From the IMG/VR virus record IMGVR_UViG_2630968342_000015: 14,640 nucleotides of DNA; one strand, given 5' to 3'. The notes below the pieces were generated by a model. That model searched no databases. It was not told the DNA's origin and saw only the letters and a list, made by a program, of their open reading frames with translations. Source of the stretch: a virus (Duplodnaviria > Heunggongvirae > Uroviricota > Caudoviricetes). The position numbers were made by a program, and so were the translations under genes. Positions within the stretch are counted from its first letter, which is position 1. Each line of letters begins with the position of its first letter. Of this stretch, positions 5,251 to 14,430 are shown piece by piece.

Positions 5251-5475
5251 ACTGTTCACCACTGTTCACCCTGTCATAAATATCTTTTGTATCAGTATGT
5301 TATAGGGTGAACAGTTATTTATGAACTGTTCACCAAACTATTCACTGTTCACCTTTTTGATTGTTTATTGAGCTTCAAGGGTGAACAGTGGTGAATAGTT
5401 GGTGAATAGTTTTTGTGAAACTGTTCACCCCTTAATATTATGAATTAAAAGATAAAATATCAAAAGGTGAACAGG
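5251..5475. repeat. Origin of replication: about 11 copies of the 10-bp iteron ACTGTTCACC in both orientations around AT-rich DNA
   Basis: Plus-oriented copies at 5251, 5261, 5325, 5344 and 5420, with a degenerate one at 5337. Inverted copies (GGTGAACAGT/GGTGAATAGT) at 5306, 5380, 5390, 5401 and 5466. AT-rich stretch at 5430-5465. Confidence 0.8.
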
Positions 5476-6188: not shown

Positions 6189-6461
6189 ATGGTACATGAC
6201 CGCATAGCGGAAGAACTCGAGGCGAAAGGCTTTTACCGGAGGGCGGCGGCGCGATGGGGTGAAGTCATGCTGCTGGTGGAGACAGACAAGGAACGGCATC
6301 AGGTTACGATGCGACGGCTGGAATGTTCCAGGAAGGCACAGAAGCCACCGGAGCCGCCGGATAACTTCGGAGACCTGAGAAAGGCAGTAGATCGCACTTA
6401 TGCTGAAATGGGTATAGATGGTGTAAGCGATGAAATATGGCGTAATTACCCAGACAGCTAA
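6189..6461 (+). CDS. PerC-family-like transcriptional regulator
   Basis: ATG at 6189 after GAGGGGG; 90 aa. The N-terminal AEELEAKGFYRRAAARWGEVM resembles the PerC/Pch family signature (recall only). Confidence 0.5.
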   Translation: MVHDRIAEELEAKGFYRRAAARWGEVMLLVETDKERHQVTMRRLECSRKAQKPPEPPDNFGDLRKAVDRTYAEMGIDGVSDEIWRNYPDS

Positions 6462-6465
6462 TCAA

Positions 6466-6490
6466 CAGCCGGAGAAATCCGGCTTTTTTT
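6466..6490 (+). terminator. Rho-independent terminator
   Basis: AGCCGGA-GAAA-TCCGGCT followed by seven T. Confidence 0.85.
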
Positions 6491-6585
6491 GCACCAGTTG
6501 AAACGGTATGGCGCATTACCGGGTTTTCGTCACGGTCAGGCATAGTTACTATCTGAAACAAACAGACACAACAGAGGAAAAAACA

Positions 6586-6810
6586 ATGCCGATGAAATTT
6601 GATGAGATATTAAAACAGCGTGATAAATACCATGCTGACAACATGGAGACGATGAGCATCAATGATTACCGCGCATTCCTGGAGACGGGCGCACTGATTG
6701 AAAAGGATCAGCATGGTTTTGTGAGATGTGCTCTGTCCGGTGAAATGCTGGCGGTAAATCCTGAACAGATAGATGCATTGATAGAATTTCTGAAAGGGAT
6801 CAGGGACTGA
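6586..6810 (+). CDS. Hypothetical protein (74 aa), moron-like cassette
   Basis: ATG at 6586, 8 nt after AGAGGA. Flanked by two near-identical terminators. Confidence 0.55.
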   Translation: MPMKFDEILKQRDKYHADNMETMSINDYRAFLETGALIEKDQHGFVRCALSGEMLAVNPEQIDALIEFLKGIRD

Positions 6811-6819
6811 GCACGCATA

Positions 6820-6843
6820 CAGCCGGAGCAATCCGGCTTTTTG
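6820..6843 (+). terminator. Rho-independent terminator (near-duplicate of 6466-6490)
   Basis: AGCCGGA-GCAA-TCCGGCT followed by TTTTT. Confidence 0.85.
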
Positions 6844-6861
6844 TCATTTTTTGTAAATTAT

Positions 6862-6896
6862 TTGTTCGTGGTTGTTCCACGTTGTTCACTGACAGG
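6862..6896 (+). repeat. Three TTGTTC motifs on a 10-bp phase upstream of the head operon; candidate activator/Rep-binding site and promoter region
   Basis: TTGTTC at 6862, 6872 and 6882. The 15-mer TTGTTCCACGTTGTT (6872-6886) recurs exactly at 14374-14388. A possible -10 TATTTT lies at 6904-6909. Confidence 0.65.
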
Positions 6897-6964
6897 ATCG
6901 GCATATTTTACCCGAACTGAATCATGAGTATTCTCGCCCGTGGTGCCAGGACGCTGGGGCCACT

Positions 6965-7010
6965 TTCCCGCCTGTTAATGTGCTCGCCAATATTCATTAC
7001 CAGGCGGGAA
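6965..7010 (+). other. Long-range 10-bp inverted repeat in the head-operon leader
   Basis: TTCCCGCCTG (6965-6974) pairs perfectly with CAGGCGGGAA (7001-7010) across a 26-nt loop. Confidence 0.6.
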
Positions 7011-7064
7011 AACGATCGGTGCGATTGCTGATTTCCTTATGAAAAACGGTTGAGTTTTTGCCGC

Positions 7065-7102
7065 GTCCTGGAGTTCCTTACTTAACCCCAGGACTTTTTT
7101 TT
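7065..7102 (+). terminator. Intrinsic terminator directly abutting the capsid start codon
   Basis: GTCCTGGAGTT/AACCCCAGGAC gives an 11-bp stem with one mismatch and an 8-nt loop. It is followed by eight T (7095-7102) and then the ATG at 7103. Confidence 0.75.
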
Positions 7103-8260
7103 ATGCCGAGAATAATCGAATTACGCCAGCAGAAAACCGCCATTAAAAATCAGATGCGCGACATGCTGGAGAACGCGGAAAAAGAAAACCGCAGCCTTAA
7201 CGATGCAGAGGGCGCAAAATTTGACGAATTACGCGCTAAAGCTGAATCCCTCGATAAAGACATTTCCCGCCTTGAAGCCATTGCAGACGAAGAGCGCAGC
7301 AAGCCAGGTAAAAGCAGCCAGACCACTGACCCGGCAGAACTCCGCAACTACATCCTGACAGGTGAAACCCGCGCATTAAGTACAGGCGTTCCCGCTGATG
7401 GTGGTTATACCGTTATCCCCGAACTGAACACCGAAATCATGCGAATGCTGACGGATGAATCCACCATGCGCCGCATCTGTACCGTGAAGAAAATCAGCAG
7501 CAACGAGTTTAAGCAGCTTGTTTCCGCTGGCGGTGCGACCGTTAACCACGGTGAAGAGGGTAAGACACGCGAACAGACCAGCACCCCGCAGATTAACGAG
7601 GTGAGCATTAAGCTGTATCCGGTCTATGCGTACCCGCGCACCACACAGGAAATCGTGGATTTTTCCGATGTGGACATCCTTTCATGGCTGACGGGTGAGA
7701 TTGGCGACACCTTCACGGAAACCGAAGAAAGCGATCTGGTTGTGGGCGACGGTGACAAAAAAGCAAAAGGTTTTTTATCCGTACCCCGTGCAGAGAAGAA
7801 CGACAAAGAGCGTGATTTTGGTACGTTGCAGGTAATTAAACCTTCCGAATCTCTGGCGTGGACATCTGCGGACCCGCTGATCGACCTGAAATTTGCATTA
7901 CGTAAAAAATACCGCAAAAACGCGGTCTGGGTGGTTAACTCCACGACGGCGGCAAAACTTCAGAAGGTGAAGAACGCGAACGGTGATTACATCTGGCGCG
8001 ACCGTTTACAGGCGGGTGATCCTGATACGTTGCTGGGCCTTCCGGTCGAATATCTGGAGTTTATGCCTGATAACGTTATTGCCCTGGGTGACTTCAAACG
8101 CGGTTACTACATTGTTGATCACGAAACAGGTGTTCGCACCAGACCGGACAACCTCACAGAGCCGGGCTTCATCAAAATTTTCACGCAGAAATATTTAGGC
8201 GGTGGCGTGGTGGATTCGAACGCGATCAAGATTCTGGAACTGCCACAGGACGACGATTAA
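7103..8260 (+). CDS. HK97-family major capsid protein with an N-terminal delta/scaffold-like coiled coil
   Basis: The N-terminus MPRIIELRQQKTAIKNQMRDMLENAEKENRSLNDAEGAKFDELRAKAESLDKDISRLE is typical of HK97-type MCP delta domains. The body has GGYTVIPE... and ...LVVGDGDKKAKGFL motifs. Confidence 0.9.
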   Translation: MPRIIELRQQKTAIKNQMRDMLENAEKENRSLNDAEGAKFDELRAKAESLDKDISRLEAIADEERSKPGKSSQTTDPAELRNYILTGETRALSTGVPADGGYTVIPELNTEIMRMLTDESTMRRICTVKKISSNEFKQLVSAGGATVNHGEEGKTREQTSTPQINEVSIKLYPVYAYPRTTQEIVDFSDVDILSWLTGEIGDTFTETEESDLVVGDGDKKAKGFLSVPRAEKNDKERDFGTLQVIKPSESLAWTSADPLIDLKFALRKKYRKNAVWVVNSTTAAKLQKVKNANGDYIWRDRLQAGDPDTLLGLPVEYLEFMPDNVIALGDFKRGYYIVDHETGVRTRPDNLTEPGFIKIFTQKYLGGGVVDSNAIKILELPQDDD

Positions 8261-8270
8261 CAGCATACAG

Positions 8271-8299
8271 AAGGGGCTTAAAAGCCCCTTTAGTGTTTT
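8271..8299 (+). terminator. Hairpin with an interrupted U-tract after the capsid gene; probable partial terminator or attenuator
   Basis: AAGGGGCT-TAAA-AGCCCCTT (8-bp stem) followed by TAGTGTTTTA. Confidence 0.5.
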
Positions 8300-11319: not shown

Positions 11320-11441
11320 TGAGGCTGTATGACGGGGTGGGGGGCGTTTTCAGGACAAACCCGACCCCGCCGGGCACCGACCGCCTCCTCAAATTTTTAT
11401 GCACGGGAATTTTTTGAAAAATAATCTGACGAAAAATAAGC
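11320..11441. other. Candidate cos region
   Basis: Lies between HNH and terS, the HK97-like position for cos. G-rich (11331-11346) and C-rich (11361-11389) segments are partly complementary and are followed by AT-rich DNA. Positional inference only. Confidence 0.35.
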
Positions 11442-14363: not shown

Positions 14364-14398
14364 CTTGTGTCTATTTGTTCCACGTTGTTTCATACAGT
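14364..14398 (+). repeat. Three TTGT-core motifs on a 10-bp phase near the right end; homolog of 6862-6896
   Basis: TTGTGT 14364, TTGTTC 14374, TTGTTT 14384. Shares an exact 15-mer with 6872-6886. Confidence 0.65.
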
Positions 14399-14407
14399 GC
14401 ACCGAAC

Positions 14408-14430
14408 GGTGTAGTCACTGGTGTAGTCAT
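14408..14430 (+). repeat. Tandem direct repeat GGTGTAGTCA x2 (12-bp period); candidate integrase arm-type sites
   Basis: Copies at 14408-14417 and 14420-14429, about 70-90 bp from the presumed junction. Confidence 0.4.

Follow-up and report, generated by a model that had tools for sequence, protein, structure and literature searches.

How is the production of capsids controlled in a satellite that makes its own? Capsid-forming PICIs (cf-PICIs) build small capsids of their own and borrow only tails from phage. Their capsids have been reported without helper induction, including in a non-lysogen, and recent work reports the release of tail-less capsids even then. No description of the control of the capsid operon was found in the cf-PICI literature examined. 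The window analysed here, the whole 14,640-nt stretch of the IMG/VR record IMGVR_UViG_2630968342_000015, is a cf-PICI of the EcCIEDL933 type from E. coli O157:H7, EcCIEDL933 being the cf-PICI prototype, and it raises the question directly: a terminator-like hairpin abuts the start codon of its capsid gene.

Genomic context

According to Pfam and PHROGs, the island encodes int, alpA and a primase together with capsid, protease, portal, connector, HNH, TerS and TerL; neither database detected tail or lysis genes among the island proteins. The capsid leader and its flanks are 100% identical to the EDL933 island situated between roxA and phoQ, and the capsid ATG at 7103-7105 is the start annotated by PGAP in identical genomes. 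Two features delimit the region:

6821..6845, + strand: intrinsic terminator of the upstream gene (AGCCGGA-GCAA-TCCGGCT and a T-run; terminator scan, -12.1 kcal/mol)
7103..8260, + strand: HK97-fold major capsid protein gene (Pfam Phage_capsid, E = 2.3e-61), first gene of the capsid/packaging operon

The terminator insulates the leader from upstream transcription and is the left edge of the capsid module; megablast matches in other E. coli islands end abruptly at about 6816-6842. Further downstream, a second hairpin lies 3' of the capsid gene (8270-8291), and the hnh-terS interval, the canonical position of cos, holds a 120-bp non-coding stretch (11320-11441) that is first G+C-rich and then A+T-rich.

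Transcription start and promoter region

The following features precede or overlap the 5' part of the leader:

6846..6861, + strand: A+T-rich box ATTTTTTGTAAATTAT, with the core TTTGTAAATTAT at 6850-6861
6862-6867, 6872-6877 and 6882-6887, + strand: three TTGTTC hexamers in exact 10-bp phase
6907..6934, + strand: predicted promoter-like pair from the comparison of relatives, -35 TTTACC (6907-6912), 16-nt spacer, -10 TATTCT (6929-6934)
6924..7031, + strand: small ORF of 35 codons from the ATG at 6924, published as XECs153 with one extra N-terminal residue (PMC5597208 Tables S2, S3)

Among the capsid-gene starts in Table S5 of PMC10469882, Cappable-seq places a transcription start at window position 6897 (EDL933 coordinate 1687918) on the + strand in seven of eight uninduced conditions. 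These data show that the three TTGTTC repeats overlap a promoter that is active in uninduced cells and gives rise to a 206-nt leader, which ends with the hairpin hp3 and its T-run. The leader is also transcribed in uninduced Sakai (RPKM 29, 34 and 10), with RNA-seq signal over 6921-7028, and a promoter has been predicted 31 bp upstream of the small ORF (PMC5597208). The start at 6897 has poor -10 and -35 hexamers. A sigma-70 consensus scan found no promoter in 6400-7500, both the promoter of the 6897 start and that at 6907-6934 falling below its threshold.

The A+T-rich box occurs in nearly all lineages regardless of the upstream DNA and as a single copy in the window. It spans -51 to -36 of the mapped start, which is the position of an UP element, and it may act as one. 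The phased TTGTTC site reported by the first-pass annotation was confirmed as three copies at 6862-6887 with exact 10-bp spacing: TTGTTC-N4-TTGTTC with up to two mismatches matches 10 times in the window against 1.75 expected, and none of 200 shuffles reaches 10. The repeats cover -35 to -10 relative to the mapped start, or -79 to -54 if counted from the predicted second promoter; in other lineages, three phased hexamers of other sequence, for example TTACCC, occupy the same place. These repeats are probably protein-binding sites.

The -10 element proposed earlier at 6904-6909 has to be given up, as it lies downstream of the mapped start and overlaps the -35-like TTTACC at 6907-6912 recognised by comparative alignment. 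Across 75 distinct upstream sequences, the geometry of the TTTACC/TATTCT pair is constant and its spacer varies, and both hexamers are retained between the window and the divergent relative L124, in which the spacer differs. Its predicted start, at about 6940-6942, coincides with the base of hp1, and we infer from this comparison that 6907-6934 may be a second promoter. The capsid-gene starts covered by the analysis of the Cappable-seq tables for uninduced cells include none at about 6941 (PMC10469882). They likewise include none downstream of 7102, where a mapped promoter had been named as evidence against the earlier reading of the locus (PMC10469882).

Hairpin at the capsid start codon

Three features occupy the last 40 nucleotides before the capsid gene:

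7063..7094, + strand: hp3 (stem 7065-7075 with 7084-7094) and two bases 5' of it, which complete the complement of hp1
7090..7093, + strand: AGGA, the only Shine-Dalgarno-like sequence upstream of the ATG, 9 nt before it and within the 3' arm of hp3
7095..7102, + strand: run of eight T, starting at the first base after the hp3 stem and followed directly by the capsid ATG

An 11-bp-stem hairpin with eight U ending at the base before the ATG had been described here. The position is correct, with the T-run at 7095-7102, whereas the 11-nt arms contain one A.C mismatch and form 10 of 11 pairs around an 8-nt loop (-12.7 to -14.1 kcal/mol). At its base, hp3 has seven uninterrupted pairs, five of them G-C, and it matches or exceeds the two ordinary terminators in its neighbourhood (-12.1 kcal/mol). 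A G+C-rich stem, a U-tract and a transcribed region on the same strand, the anatomical hallmarks of an intrinsic terminator, are all present, and a rho-independent terminator has been called independently at hp3, 35 bp downstream of the small ORF (PMC5597208 Table S3). Searches of published RNA 3'-end and small-RNA lists returned no entry for the locus. A hairpin with seven perfect basal pairs followed by at least seven T occurs 0.02 times per dinucleotide-shuffled window, both strands considered (4 in 200 shuffles). The leader as a whole (6900-7125) folds with z = -4.76 relative to 200 shuffles, none of which folds as well. The statement that no Shine-Dalgarno sequence lies outside the hairpin also stands, the sole AGGA being that in the 3' arm.

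Natural variation respects this hairpin. Two relatives, L024 (CC to TT) and L017 (C to T), keep the hp3 pairing through G.U pairs, and the A.C mismatch is repaired in L024 and L124; these substitutions argue for selection on the RNA hairpin. Seven or eight T are found in all 20 distinct sequences of the window lineage (type A), and the length of the run is also kept in L124. In RNA that reads through, the T8 run may provide a single-stranded standby or enhancer site for ribosomes.

Leader structure in related islands

The comparison covered 137 distinct capsid-upstream regions. A leader of about 160-206 bases with three hairpins (hp1, hp2 and hp3) is common to the family; in the window, its parts upstream of hp3 are:

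6940..6963, + strand: hp1, with a 5-bp outer stem, a 4-bp inner stem and a GACG loop at 6950-6953 (-15.6 kcal/mol)
6964..7011, + strand: hp2, directly after hp1, with 17-nt arms (6964-6980 and 6995-7011), 94% complementary and 14 nt apart (-22.6 kcal/mol)
7012..7062, + strand: linker, poorly conserved in the alignment of the window with L124

The inner stem of hp1 forms four of four pairs in all haplotypes, with three different sequences, and G.U-compatible substitutions occur in hp1 as well as in hp3. The perfect 10-bp repeat noted earlier (6965-6974 with 7001-7010) is present; rather than a long-range element, it is the base of the local hairpin hp2. A helix of at least 8 bp starting no more than 4 nt from hp1 was found in 38 of 41 leaders, with 19 distinct arms, compared with 49 of 2050 shuffles (2.4%). 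The structure of hp2 is conserved and its sequence is free, and hp2 is probably a clamp that brings hp1 and hp3 together. RNAalifold recovered all three hairpins with nine compensatory pairs. At the level of aligned sequences, the predicted hp1 and hp2 are backed by compensatory changes, and the covariation is clear.

The relatives also reveal what is not shared. A stable hairpin ending 5-7 nt before the AUG is present in 125 of the 137 distinct upstream regions, among them 101 type B and four type C regions in which, at about that distance, it has no T-tail. The T-run itself is confined to type A (20/137). As the U-tract is absent from 117 of the 137, termination is not the conserved function of hp3; comparison of the predicted folds indicates that the feature conserved in the family is the hairpin over the ribosome-binding site.

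A covariance model built for type B (R1) gave one match per type B island, ending at the capsid ATG. Window positions 6940-7011 align to its hp1 and hp2 (14.6 bits, E = 3e-4 in 601 nt with filters off), and the promoter-like hexamers of the window have the same geometry relative to hp1 as in the type B leader motif. With default filters, no full-length R1 match was obtained in the window. The type B form of hp3 (UGGUUUC.CGU...ACGGAAACCA, ending about 5 nt before the AUG) does not occur in the window, where hp3 is GUCCUGG...CCAGGAC followed by U8 after a longer linker than in type B. Searches of Rfam 15 with the window and five related loci returned no leader match at E <= 1, and none of 50,697 phage records contains the leader, except for satellites deposited as phages. 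Strand asymmetry in folding is weak, the + strand being more stable in 29 of 41 leaders by a mean of 1.4 kcal/mol. We regard the leader as a candidate for a new cis-regulatory RNA family that has no Rfam entry.

Complementarity of hp1 and hp3

A further element lies within hp1:

6946..6954, + strand: candidate anti-terminator strand CCAGGACGC, a perfect 9-bp complement of 7063-7071

In each lineage that carries hp1 (types A, B and B'), the hp1 apex is complementary to the 5' arm of hp3, although the sequences differ. The cognate duplexes reach -17 to -25 kcal/mol, and at most 3% of shuffled targets are as good in 13 of 14 leaders from these types, the exception being L089, fourth from the weakest case (18/200). 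In alignment A2, neither the GACG loop nor CGTC varies, and CGTC (7064-7067) is invariant across lineages. Between types B and B', a bulged A in hp3 is replaced by C exactly where the proposed hp1 partner changes from U to G; this covariation comprises few independent events, spread over types A, B and B'. Type C departs from this scheme in that its 5' element is paired with the Shine-Dalgarno side instead of the 5' arm; the logic is not uniform across the family.

The alternative helix would take the 5' arm of hp3 and exclude the terminator, as is expected of an attenuator. When enforced, the anti-terminator fold is feasible, with the terminator fold 5-13 kcal/mol more stable. The earlier prediction of conditional capsid control fares unevenly: the 9-bp complement fits it, but the T-run is specific to one lineage (20/137). 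Formally, the same complementarity of hp1 and hp3 is an inverted DNA repeat. Pairing of the first 43 nt (6897-6939) with the capsid initiation region, through an 8-bp and a 10/11 complement, was rejected because it was no better than in shuffles (31/500 for the window, 186/500 for L124).

Candidate regulators

The first-pass annotation had suggested a helper late regulator, AlpA or PerC as the factor acting on the leader. A helper late regulator is unlikely, since the leader occurs in no true phage among the records searched, Pfam and PHROGs sequence searches detected no Q-family antiterminator among the island proteins, and capsids have been reported without helper induction. AlpA is not supported, as its alleles do not track the promoter repeats: identical promoters with three TTGTTC copies coexist with AlpA alleles only 49-64% identical to that of the window, and islands with other AlpA alleles have no TTGTTC repeats elsewhere. 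The island AlpA is a 62-aa helix-turn-helix protein of the Vis/Xis type and shares only its name with the AlpA antiterminator of Pseudomonas aeruginosa, an eight-helix, 21Q-like protein (PMC9371919). PerC does co-occur with the terminator-type leader: all 10 type A islands examined and L124 have it. Most islands with a leader of this family, however, do not (PerC in 3/42 of type B, none of types C and D). It was rejected as a general regulator and remains a lead for type A only. The upstream gene at 6586-6810 (phrog_1957) was likewise discarded, as it is missing from Ec15103, which has the same leader, and from many other islands. The search for a sensor in the leader found no conserved leader peptide, no known protein-binding motif, no Rfam family and, with hp2 variable, no conserved aptamer.

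Discussion

We propose, with a probability of about 0.5, that the leader is a default-OFF attenuator and translational gate placed on a constitutively firing promoter. In this hypothetical scheme, (i) positions 6897-7102 would be the 5' leader RNA of the cf-PICI capsid/packaging operon; (ii) the RNA would fold into hp1 (6940-6963), hp2 (6964-7011) and hp3 (7065-7094), as predicted by folding and backed by the comparison of relatives; (iii) hp3 and U8, judging from their anatomy, would form an intrinsic terminator at which most polymerases stop, one base short of the capsid AUG, and in RNA that reads through, hp3 would bury the only Shine-Dalgarno sequence, so that the operon would be OFF by default at two levels; (iv) release, as the covariation suggests, would come about when the hp1 apex (6946-6954) captures the 5' arm of hp3 (7063-7071), the hp2 clamp holding the partners close, and this pairing would prevent the terminator and free the Shine-Dalgarno sequence; (v) the balance could be shifted by a factor opening hp1 or by use of the second, promoter-like element (6907-6934), the transcripts of which would start from the base of hp1. 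Since capsids have been reported without helper induction, any block is leaky, and leaky read-through would account for this basal capsid production. In the window lineage, capsid production is probably held back by default.

Two counterpoints concern the function of the T-run: a strong block before the most abundantly needed protein is paradoxical, and the run could serve translation instead, since most relatives have no U-tract. In line with the latter, hp3 could mainly mask the Shine-Dalgarno sequence, as a translational operator or mRNA element, with U8 as a standby or enhancer site and spacer, little termination, and a capsid yield controlled post-transcriptionally. The 101 type B and four type C hairpins without a T-tail suit such an operator, as control in a majority lineage that has no U-tract must be post-transcriptional; a GGA or AGGAG within or adjoining the 3' arm, some 9 nt ahead of the AUG, is common to types A, B and C, the spacing between Shine-Dalgarno sequence and AUG is equal in types A and B, and capsids form without helper induction. 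However, a G+C-rich stem with 7-8 U is a canonical termination signal for E. coli RNA polymerase regardless of any masking, a published predictor called a terminator there (PMC5597208), the combination of hairpin and T-run has a chance expectation of 0.02 per window, and the length of the run is kept in all type A variants and L124. As a full account of the window, we consider control by translation unlikely. Still less probable is that 6897-7102 encodes a discrete small RNA, some 206 nt long, which the lysogen makes constitutively and which functions in trans, with the capsid gene expressed by separate read-through. The constitutive start at 6897, transcription of the region in uninduced Sakai, the strongly structured body and a 3' end of hairpin and U8 like that of Hfq-dependent small RNAs are what such a gene would have, and a precedent exists in StxS, described in PMC7547250 as the short PR'-tR' transcript of Stx phages, which arises from an always-active late promoter terminated immediately downstream. 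The locus does not appear in the text lists of an Hfq cross-linking study or an EDL933 ncRNA study, it has no known target, evidence of Hfq binding was not found, and most relatives have no terminator and cannot make a discrete RNA in this way. A small RNA would be compatible with attenuation.

Processive antitermination, in which a protein of helper or island origin loaded at the promoter (of the Q or P. aeruginosa AlpA type) or a put-like hp1-hp2 element carries polymerase through hp3 and the downstream hairpins, would match the layout of lambda PR'-tR', in which a constitutive promoter is followed by a leader some 200 nt long, a terminator and the late genes. The repeats cover -35 to -10 of the start, where the binding elements of Q and AlpA lie (PMC9371919), the promoter is followed, as in putL (PMC9378689), by a pair of adjoining stem-loops, and a second hairpin follows the capsid gene (8270-8291). 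We nevertheless judge it quite improbable: no Q-like island protein was found in Pfam or PHROGs, a 62-aa AlpA is unlike the eight-helix antiterminator of that name, the leader is in no true phage and capsids form in a non-lysogen, neither similarity to HK022 put nor an Rfam match was detected, and the free sequence of hp2 is unlike that of a polymerase-binding element. The only -10-like hexamer downstream of the start is TATTCT at +33 to +38, which, as far as we are aware, is farther out than known pause elements. Attenuation through a leader peptide, whereby translation of the 35-codon ORF (XECs153) through hp1 and hp2 would decide whether the terminator forms, is more improbable again. The ORF covers both hairpins, contains tandem rare arginine codons (AGG, CGG) and has weak ribosome footprints, with a coverage value of 0.42 in LB that falls to 0.10 and 0.04 in other conditions (PMC5597208). 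Nonetheless, it has no Shine-Dalgarno sequence, was labelled 'pseudo' by the published classifier and has no homologues (PMC5597208), and it is not preserved in relatives: L124 has a GTG start and no corresponding stop, and type B either has another ORF, about 10 codons long, or lacks one altogether. A ribosome terminating on XECs153 would not contact hp3, since the stop codon of this ORF is 34 nt upstream of the hairpin. The small ORF is probably not a functional leader peptide. Hardly credible, finally, is a DNA site (cos, replication or protein-binding) whose hairpins are incidental palindromes. In its favour, hp1 forms an imperfect palindrome of 25 bp that hardly varies across genera (identical in 65 of 93 distinct leaders), the adjoining phased repeats recall terminase or iteron sites, and no cf-PICI cos location was found in the cf-PICI literature examined. 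Against a DNA site, hp2 pairing is kept despite complete replacement of its sequence, the substitutions in hp1 and hp3 are G.U-compatible, the region is transcribed from a mapped start, and replication genes vary independently of the capsid-leader module; a cos site in particular is disfavoured by the separate non-coding stretch at the canonical hnh-terS position (11320-11441).

The proposed default-OFF attenuator shares parts with several known systems. In phage lambda, termination at PR'-tR' yields the short 6S RNA and is relieved by Q antitermination. As at lambdoid PR'-tR', the island promoter is active in the lysogen and is followed by a leader some 200 nt long, at the end of which a predicted intrinsic terminator stands directly ahead of the late (head) genes; a short RNA, like StxS (PMC7547250), would be the by-product. 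In contrast to these phages, it has no Q gene and no recognisable Q-binding or pause element, its terminator abuts the AUG and hides the Shine-Dalgarno sequence, its leader contains a candidate anti-terminator pairing of its own, and most of its relatives have no terminator. Classical attenuators (trp-type, BglG/RAT-type and riboswitch platforms) have the same topology of 1:2 and 3:4 versus 2:3 pairing with the terminator fold as ground state, but no sensor was found in the island leader, and its competing strands are about 100 nt apart, joined by hp2. As in translational operators that mask the Shine-Dalgarno sequence and have a distant upstream anti-sequestor, 125 of 137 relatives carry this sequence in the 3' arm of a stable hairpin whose end is 5-9 nt upstream of the AUG, with a complementary element further upstream; unlike in these operators, the hairpin of the window lineage also bears a full terminator U-tract and has no known regulator. 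HK022 put and the cis-acting antiterminator RNAs of, for example, Tn916 and ICEBs1 likewise consist of two adjacent stem-loops of about 70-85 nt near the 5' end of the transcript and upstream of terminators (PMC9378689). The leader differs from put in its unconstrained hp2 sequence and in having no sequence similarity to it (no blastn-short match in HK022 27600-32600 at E <= 10, and no resemblance of the cro-cII region on inspection), and also in that a terminator would serve no purpose next to an always-active antiterminator. Operon I of SaPIs (LexA, LtrC-type activators) and the late promoters of P4 (Delta/Ogr, Vis, Cox) are comparable as morphogenetic operons that are silent until the lytic programme and have phased promoter repeats. 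Those systems act at initiation through DNA-binding proteins, whereas the island promoter fires in uninduced cells and the block would lie in the RNA leader.

In summary, our analysis provides three leads on the control of cf-PICI capsids: a promoter active in uninduced cells, a conserved folded leader and, at the capsid AUG of the O157:H7 lineage, a putative terminator that also masks the Shine-Dalgarno sequence. Taken together, they give a concrete, testable account of where the capsid decision may fall and would explain low but non-zero expression. More speculatively, and doubtful in its full form, the leader could represent an undescribed family of self-contained RNA switches in which strand exchange between hp1 (GACG) and hp3 (CGUC) turns on the capsid/packaging operon, acting on translation in most lineages and additionally on termination in E. 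coli/Shigella, and driven by an island or host factor or by promoter choice. If this is true, it is at the hp1/hp3 switch that a quiescent satellite would become committed, or not, to making tail-less capsids.

Genomic setting of the capsid leader

The region 6400-7400 is 100% identical to the roxA-phoQ island of E. coli O157:H7 strains including EDL933, where it is known as EcCIEDL933 and serves as the prototype of the capsid-forming PICIs. On the left, where the integrase and primase genes lie, the window is unlike EDL933 and is therefore a mosaic relative. Besides the genes listed below, it encodes an SSB and, beyond the capsid gene, a packaging module of prohead protease, portal, head closure, connector, HNH, TerS and TerL; no tail or lysis genes are among the window genes. 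Megablast matches in other genomes end near 6816-6842, indicating that the leader moves together with the capsid module rather than with the upstream DNA.

Features of the window, with hairpins of the capsid-operon leader as hp1 to hp3
1-1218, tyrosine integrase (int)
1593-1781, AlpA/Vis-type helix-turn-helix protein, 62 aa
3406-5238, D5-type primase-helicase
6189-6461, PerC-family protein, directly upstream of the terminator-type leader (in the divergent terminator-type relative L124: 217-477)
6907-6912 and 6929-6934, promoter-like pair, predicted start at the base of hp1
6921-7031, small ORF XECs153, overlapping hp1 and hp2
6940-6963, hp1
6964-7011, hp2
7065-7094, hp3
7103-8260, major capsid protein (HK97-type capsid and packaging module)

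Several features outside the leader were also recorded. A 247-codon ORF (1839-2582) of odd Cys/Ser/Arg-rich composition, annotated as hypothetical in related genomes and without a family match, contains minus-strand terminator-like hairpins, one at 2543-2579 and a second just right of the A-run 1928-1934, with T7 after its stem on the minus strand; the ORF is possibly no real gene. The interval from the primase gene to the following ORF holds a long hairpin region (5314-5429, including a 13-bp stem at 5401-5429), whose weak matches to microRNA-precursor models are a sign of the long stem and which may be the replication origin. The frameshifted 'trigger factor' pseudogene called by PGAP at 6430-6545 (EDL933_RS35125 in the related locus L255), which overlaps the perC end and its terminator, is probably an annotation artefact. 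Near-identical intrinsic terminators at 6467-6490 and 6821-6845 (AGCCGGAG[A/C]AATCCGGCT followed by a T-run) stand after perC and the next small gene, respectively, so that the small genes upstream of the capsid module are each insulated separately. The capsid-protease interval holds a 9-bp G+C-rich hairpin with a weak T-run (8270-8291, -14.8 kcal/mol), which could be a partial terminator or a 3' stabiliser raising the capsid-to-protease ratio. The interval 11320-11441, 120 bp of non-coding DNA separating the HNH/small ORF from terS, is G+C-rich (GACGGGGTGGGGGGCG...CCCGACCCCGCCGGGCACCGACCGCC) and then A+T-rich; in position and appearance it resembles a canonical cos site.

A constitutive promoter faces a predicted terminator at the capsid ATG

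All leader features listed in the first-pass annotation are present in the sequence. The hairpin and eight T that it described up to the capsid ATG were confirmed: the arms of hp3 (7065-7075 with 7084-7094) form 10 of 11 pairs (-12.7 kcal/mol), the T-run (7095-7102) follows directly 3' and the ATG is at 7103. No Shine-Dalgarno sequence lies outside the hairpin, as had been noted, the sole AGGA (7090-7093) being in its 3' arm. The inverted repeat is likewise real, but it is not long-range: it forms a local hairpin with 17-nt arms (6964-6980 with 6995-7011). Shuffling gives an expectation of 0.02 per window for a hairpin whose seven basal pairs are perfect and which has at least seven T directly after it, and folding of the leader compared with shuffles gave z = -4.76.

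The Cappable-seq data of PMC10469882 (Table S5) assign the EDL933 capsid gene a single start, + strand position 1687918, seen in seven of eight uninduced conditions. Subtracting 1,681,021 converts EDL933 to window coordinates and places the mapped start at A6897. The three TTGTTC hexamers, which start at 6862, 6872 and 6882, thus span -35 to -10 of a start in actual use, and the '-10' formerly placed at 6904-6909 was misassigned, lying downstream of this start. A conserved A+T-rich box, TTTGTAAATTAT, occupies the position where an UP element would be. In strain Sakai, RNA-seq and ribosome profiling found the leader transcribed (RPKM 29, 34 and 10), and automated prediction placed a promoter 31 bp upstream of XECs153 (6921-7028 in that work) and, 35 bp beyond its downstream end, a rho-independent terminator (PMC5597208); this terminator is hp3. 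The promoter is constitutive and located in the TTGTTC repeats, and the mapped start together with the published leader transcription, in uninduced cells, indicates that it fires into the leader while the island is quiescent.

Comparison of upstream regions also revealed a promoter-like pair of fixed geometry, TTTAC(A/T/C) - 16 nt - TAT(C/G/T)(T/C)T, at 6907-6934. Its hexamers are common to the window and L124 while the 16-nt spacer differs, and conserved hexamers around a variable spacer are a promoter signature. No start from this pair is among those listed for uninduced EDL933, which leaves it a prediction; it perhaps serves the induced state.

The leader is a conserved RNA with a lineage-specific predicted terminator

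Approximately 170 loci encoding capsid-protein relatives, drawn from genomes, viral contigs and metagenomes, yielded 137 distinct upstream regions. Most of these follow a common plan of TTTGTAAATTAT box, three phased hexamers (TTGTTC-like, or TTACCC in another lineage), promoter-like pair, hp1, hp2, linker, hp3 and AUG. In a census of hp3 across the 137 regions, type A, to which the window belongs (20/137), has GUCCUGG...CCAGGAC followed by U7-8, and type B (101/137) has UGGUUUC.CGU...ACGGAAACCA (about -10.8 kcal/mol), which ends about 5 nt before the AUG and has no U-run. Type C accounts for four regions, and the remaining 12 have no hairpin and are A+T-rich and mostly unstructured. About 9 nt from the AUG, within or at the 3' arm of hp3, types A, B and C all have a GGA or AGGAG. 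The conserved trait is therefore a stable hairpin that covers the ribosome-binding site, and a terminator tail is seen only in the E. coli/Shigella lineage and in L124 (capsid only 69% identical). Sequence changes in hp3 comprise CC to UU in L024, giving a G.U pair and repairing the A.C mismatch, a change to a G.U pair in L017, and replacement of the upper stem and loop with repair of the mismatch in L124; type A hp3 is maintained through RNA-compatible changes.

The upstream hairpins are similarly preserved. In hp1, an outer stem of 5 bp and an inner stem of 4 bp carry a GACG loop, and the inner pairs are kept (4/4) in all haplotypes with three inner-stem sequences (CUCA/UGAG, CCAG/CUGG and CUCC/GGAG). 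A helix of at least 8 bp beginning 0-4 nt after hp1, corresponding to hp2, was present in 38 of 41 representative leaders versus 49 of 2050 dinucleotide shuffles, with 19 different 5' arm sequences. RNAalifold recovered all three hairpins from 14 type B leaders, hp2 there being a three-way junction, with compensatory double changes at nine pairs. R1, a covariance model built from these leaders, matched each type B island exactly once, at full length and ending at the capsid ATG (60-155 bits), and gave no match in HK022. On the window it aligned hp1 and hp2 only (14.6 bits, filters off); the window has the 5' two-thirds of the motif and differs in hp3. The leader matched no Rfam family and is absent from true phages. 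These patterns are evidence that the hairpins are selected RNA structures. In this conserved leader RNA, hp3 is the final helix.

Two local variations were observed. In many type B loci, including L003, L004 and L005 (at about 2800-2830), a terminator-like hairpin, ACCCC...GGGGG TTTTCTTT, follows the phased hexamers and precedes the promoter-like -10, so that it overlaps the position of the -35; the equivalent insulator terminator of the window is upstream of the TTTGTAAATTAT box instead. In the linker, at 7030-7050, CCTTATGAAAAAC is similar to the type B capsid start (CTCATGAAAAAAC), and the 3' end of R1 aligns there; it may be a relic of a recombination that made the type A 3' module.

An alternative pairing could relieve the predicted block

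The window has a perfect complement between CCAGGACGC (6946-6954), made up of the hp1 loop, the inner 5' strand and an additional base, and GCGUCCUGG (7063-7071), which comprises two bases together with the hp3 5' arm. The type B counterpart is the complementarity of GACGUGAG(CC) in hp1 with (GG)UUUCACGUC in hp3, and in type B' a U to G change in hp1, compensated within that hairpin, is matched by A to C at the hp3 bulge, a position free of constraint from hp3's own pairing. GACG and CGUC are invariant in an alignment of 26 sequences. Cognate hp1-hp3 duplexes reach -17 to -25 kcal/mol, a value equalled by no more than 3% of shuffled targets in 13 of 14 leaders (18/200 in the remaining one, L089). 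The independent covariation events behind this pairing are few, the type C 5' element pairs with the Shine-Dalgarno side instead of the hp3 5' arm, and strand asymmetry of folding is modest overall, reaching 7.5 kcal/mol in type A. As the terminator fold is favoured over the alternative helix by 5-13 kcal/mol, the modelled default state would be OFF and the alternative would need favouring. We propose that the hp1-hp3 helix would take up the whole terminator 5' arm and free the Shine-Dalgarno sequence, with hp2 as a clamp holding the two partners close, a role that would fit its variable sequence and constant presence.

Candidate regulators

A helper late regulator had been suggested to relieve the block. 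Capsids are reported to form without helper induction, even in a non-lysogen, which argues against such a regulator and for a leaky gate; no Q-like protein was found in the island. AlpA, proposed as an island factor, is known from published work as an activator of PICI genes, but its alleles do not co-vary with the promoter repeats. The antiterminator of P. aeruginosa that also bears the name 'AlpA' is unrelated, being a 21Q-like protein with eight helices. Further TTGTTC repeats of the window adjoin int (1260-1310, - strand) and lie near attR (14365-14390, + strand), only in islands with the window's int/alpA allele, and look like excisionase (AlpA) or integrase arm sites. These TTGTTC/TTGTTG repeats are phased at 10-bp spacing, just downstream of int and, on the right, about 200 bp from the phoQ end; one copy has the 15-mer TTGTTCCACGTTGTT in common with the capsid promoter, and two GGTGTAGTCA direct repeats (14409-14430) adjoin the right-hand set. 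PerC, the other proposed island factor, co-occurs with part of the family: its gene lies within 1.5 kb upstream of the leader in 10/10 type A islands and L124 (loci including L192-L194), but in only 3/42 type B islands, making it a lead for the terminator type only, with an association confounded by relatedness. The phrog_1957 gene just upstream of the leader is dispensable. XECs153, published as a candidate gene from ribosome footprints in Sakai (PMC5597208), is unlikely to be a regulator, given its weak footprints, lack of a Shine-Dalgarno sequence and lack of conservation in relatives.

Conditional control at the terminator and Shine-Dalgarno mask, as the first-pass annotation had predicted, is our best reading of the leader. 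Relief most likely comes from RNA rearrangement within the leader, rather than from a helper factor. Termination would be a lineage-specific addition to a family-wide translational mask, both being predicted from sequence.
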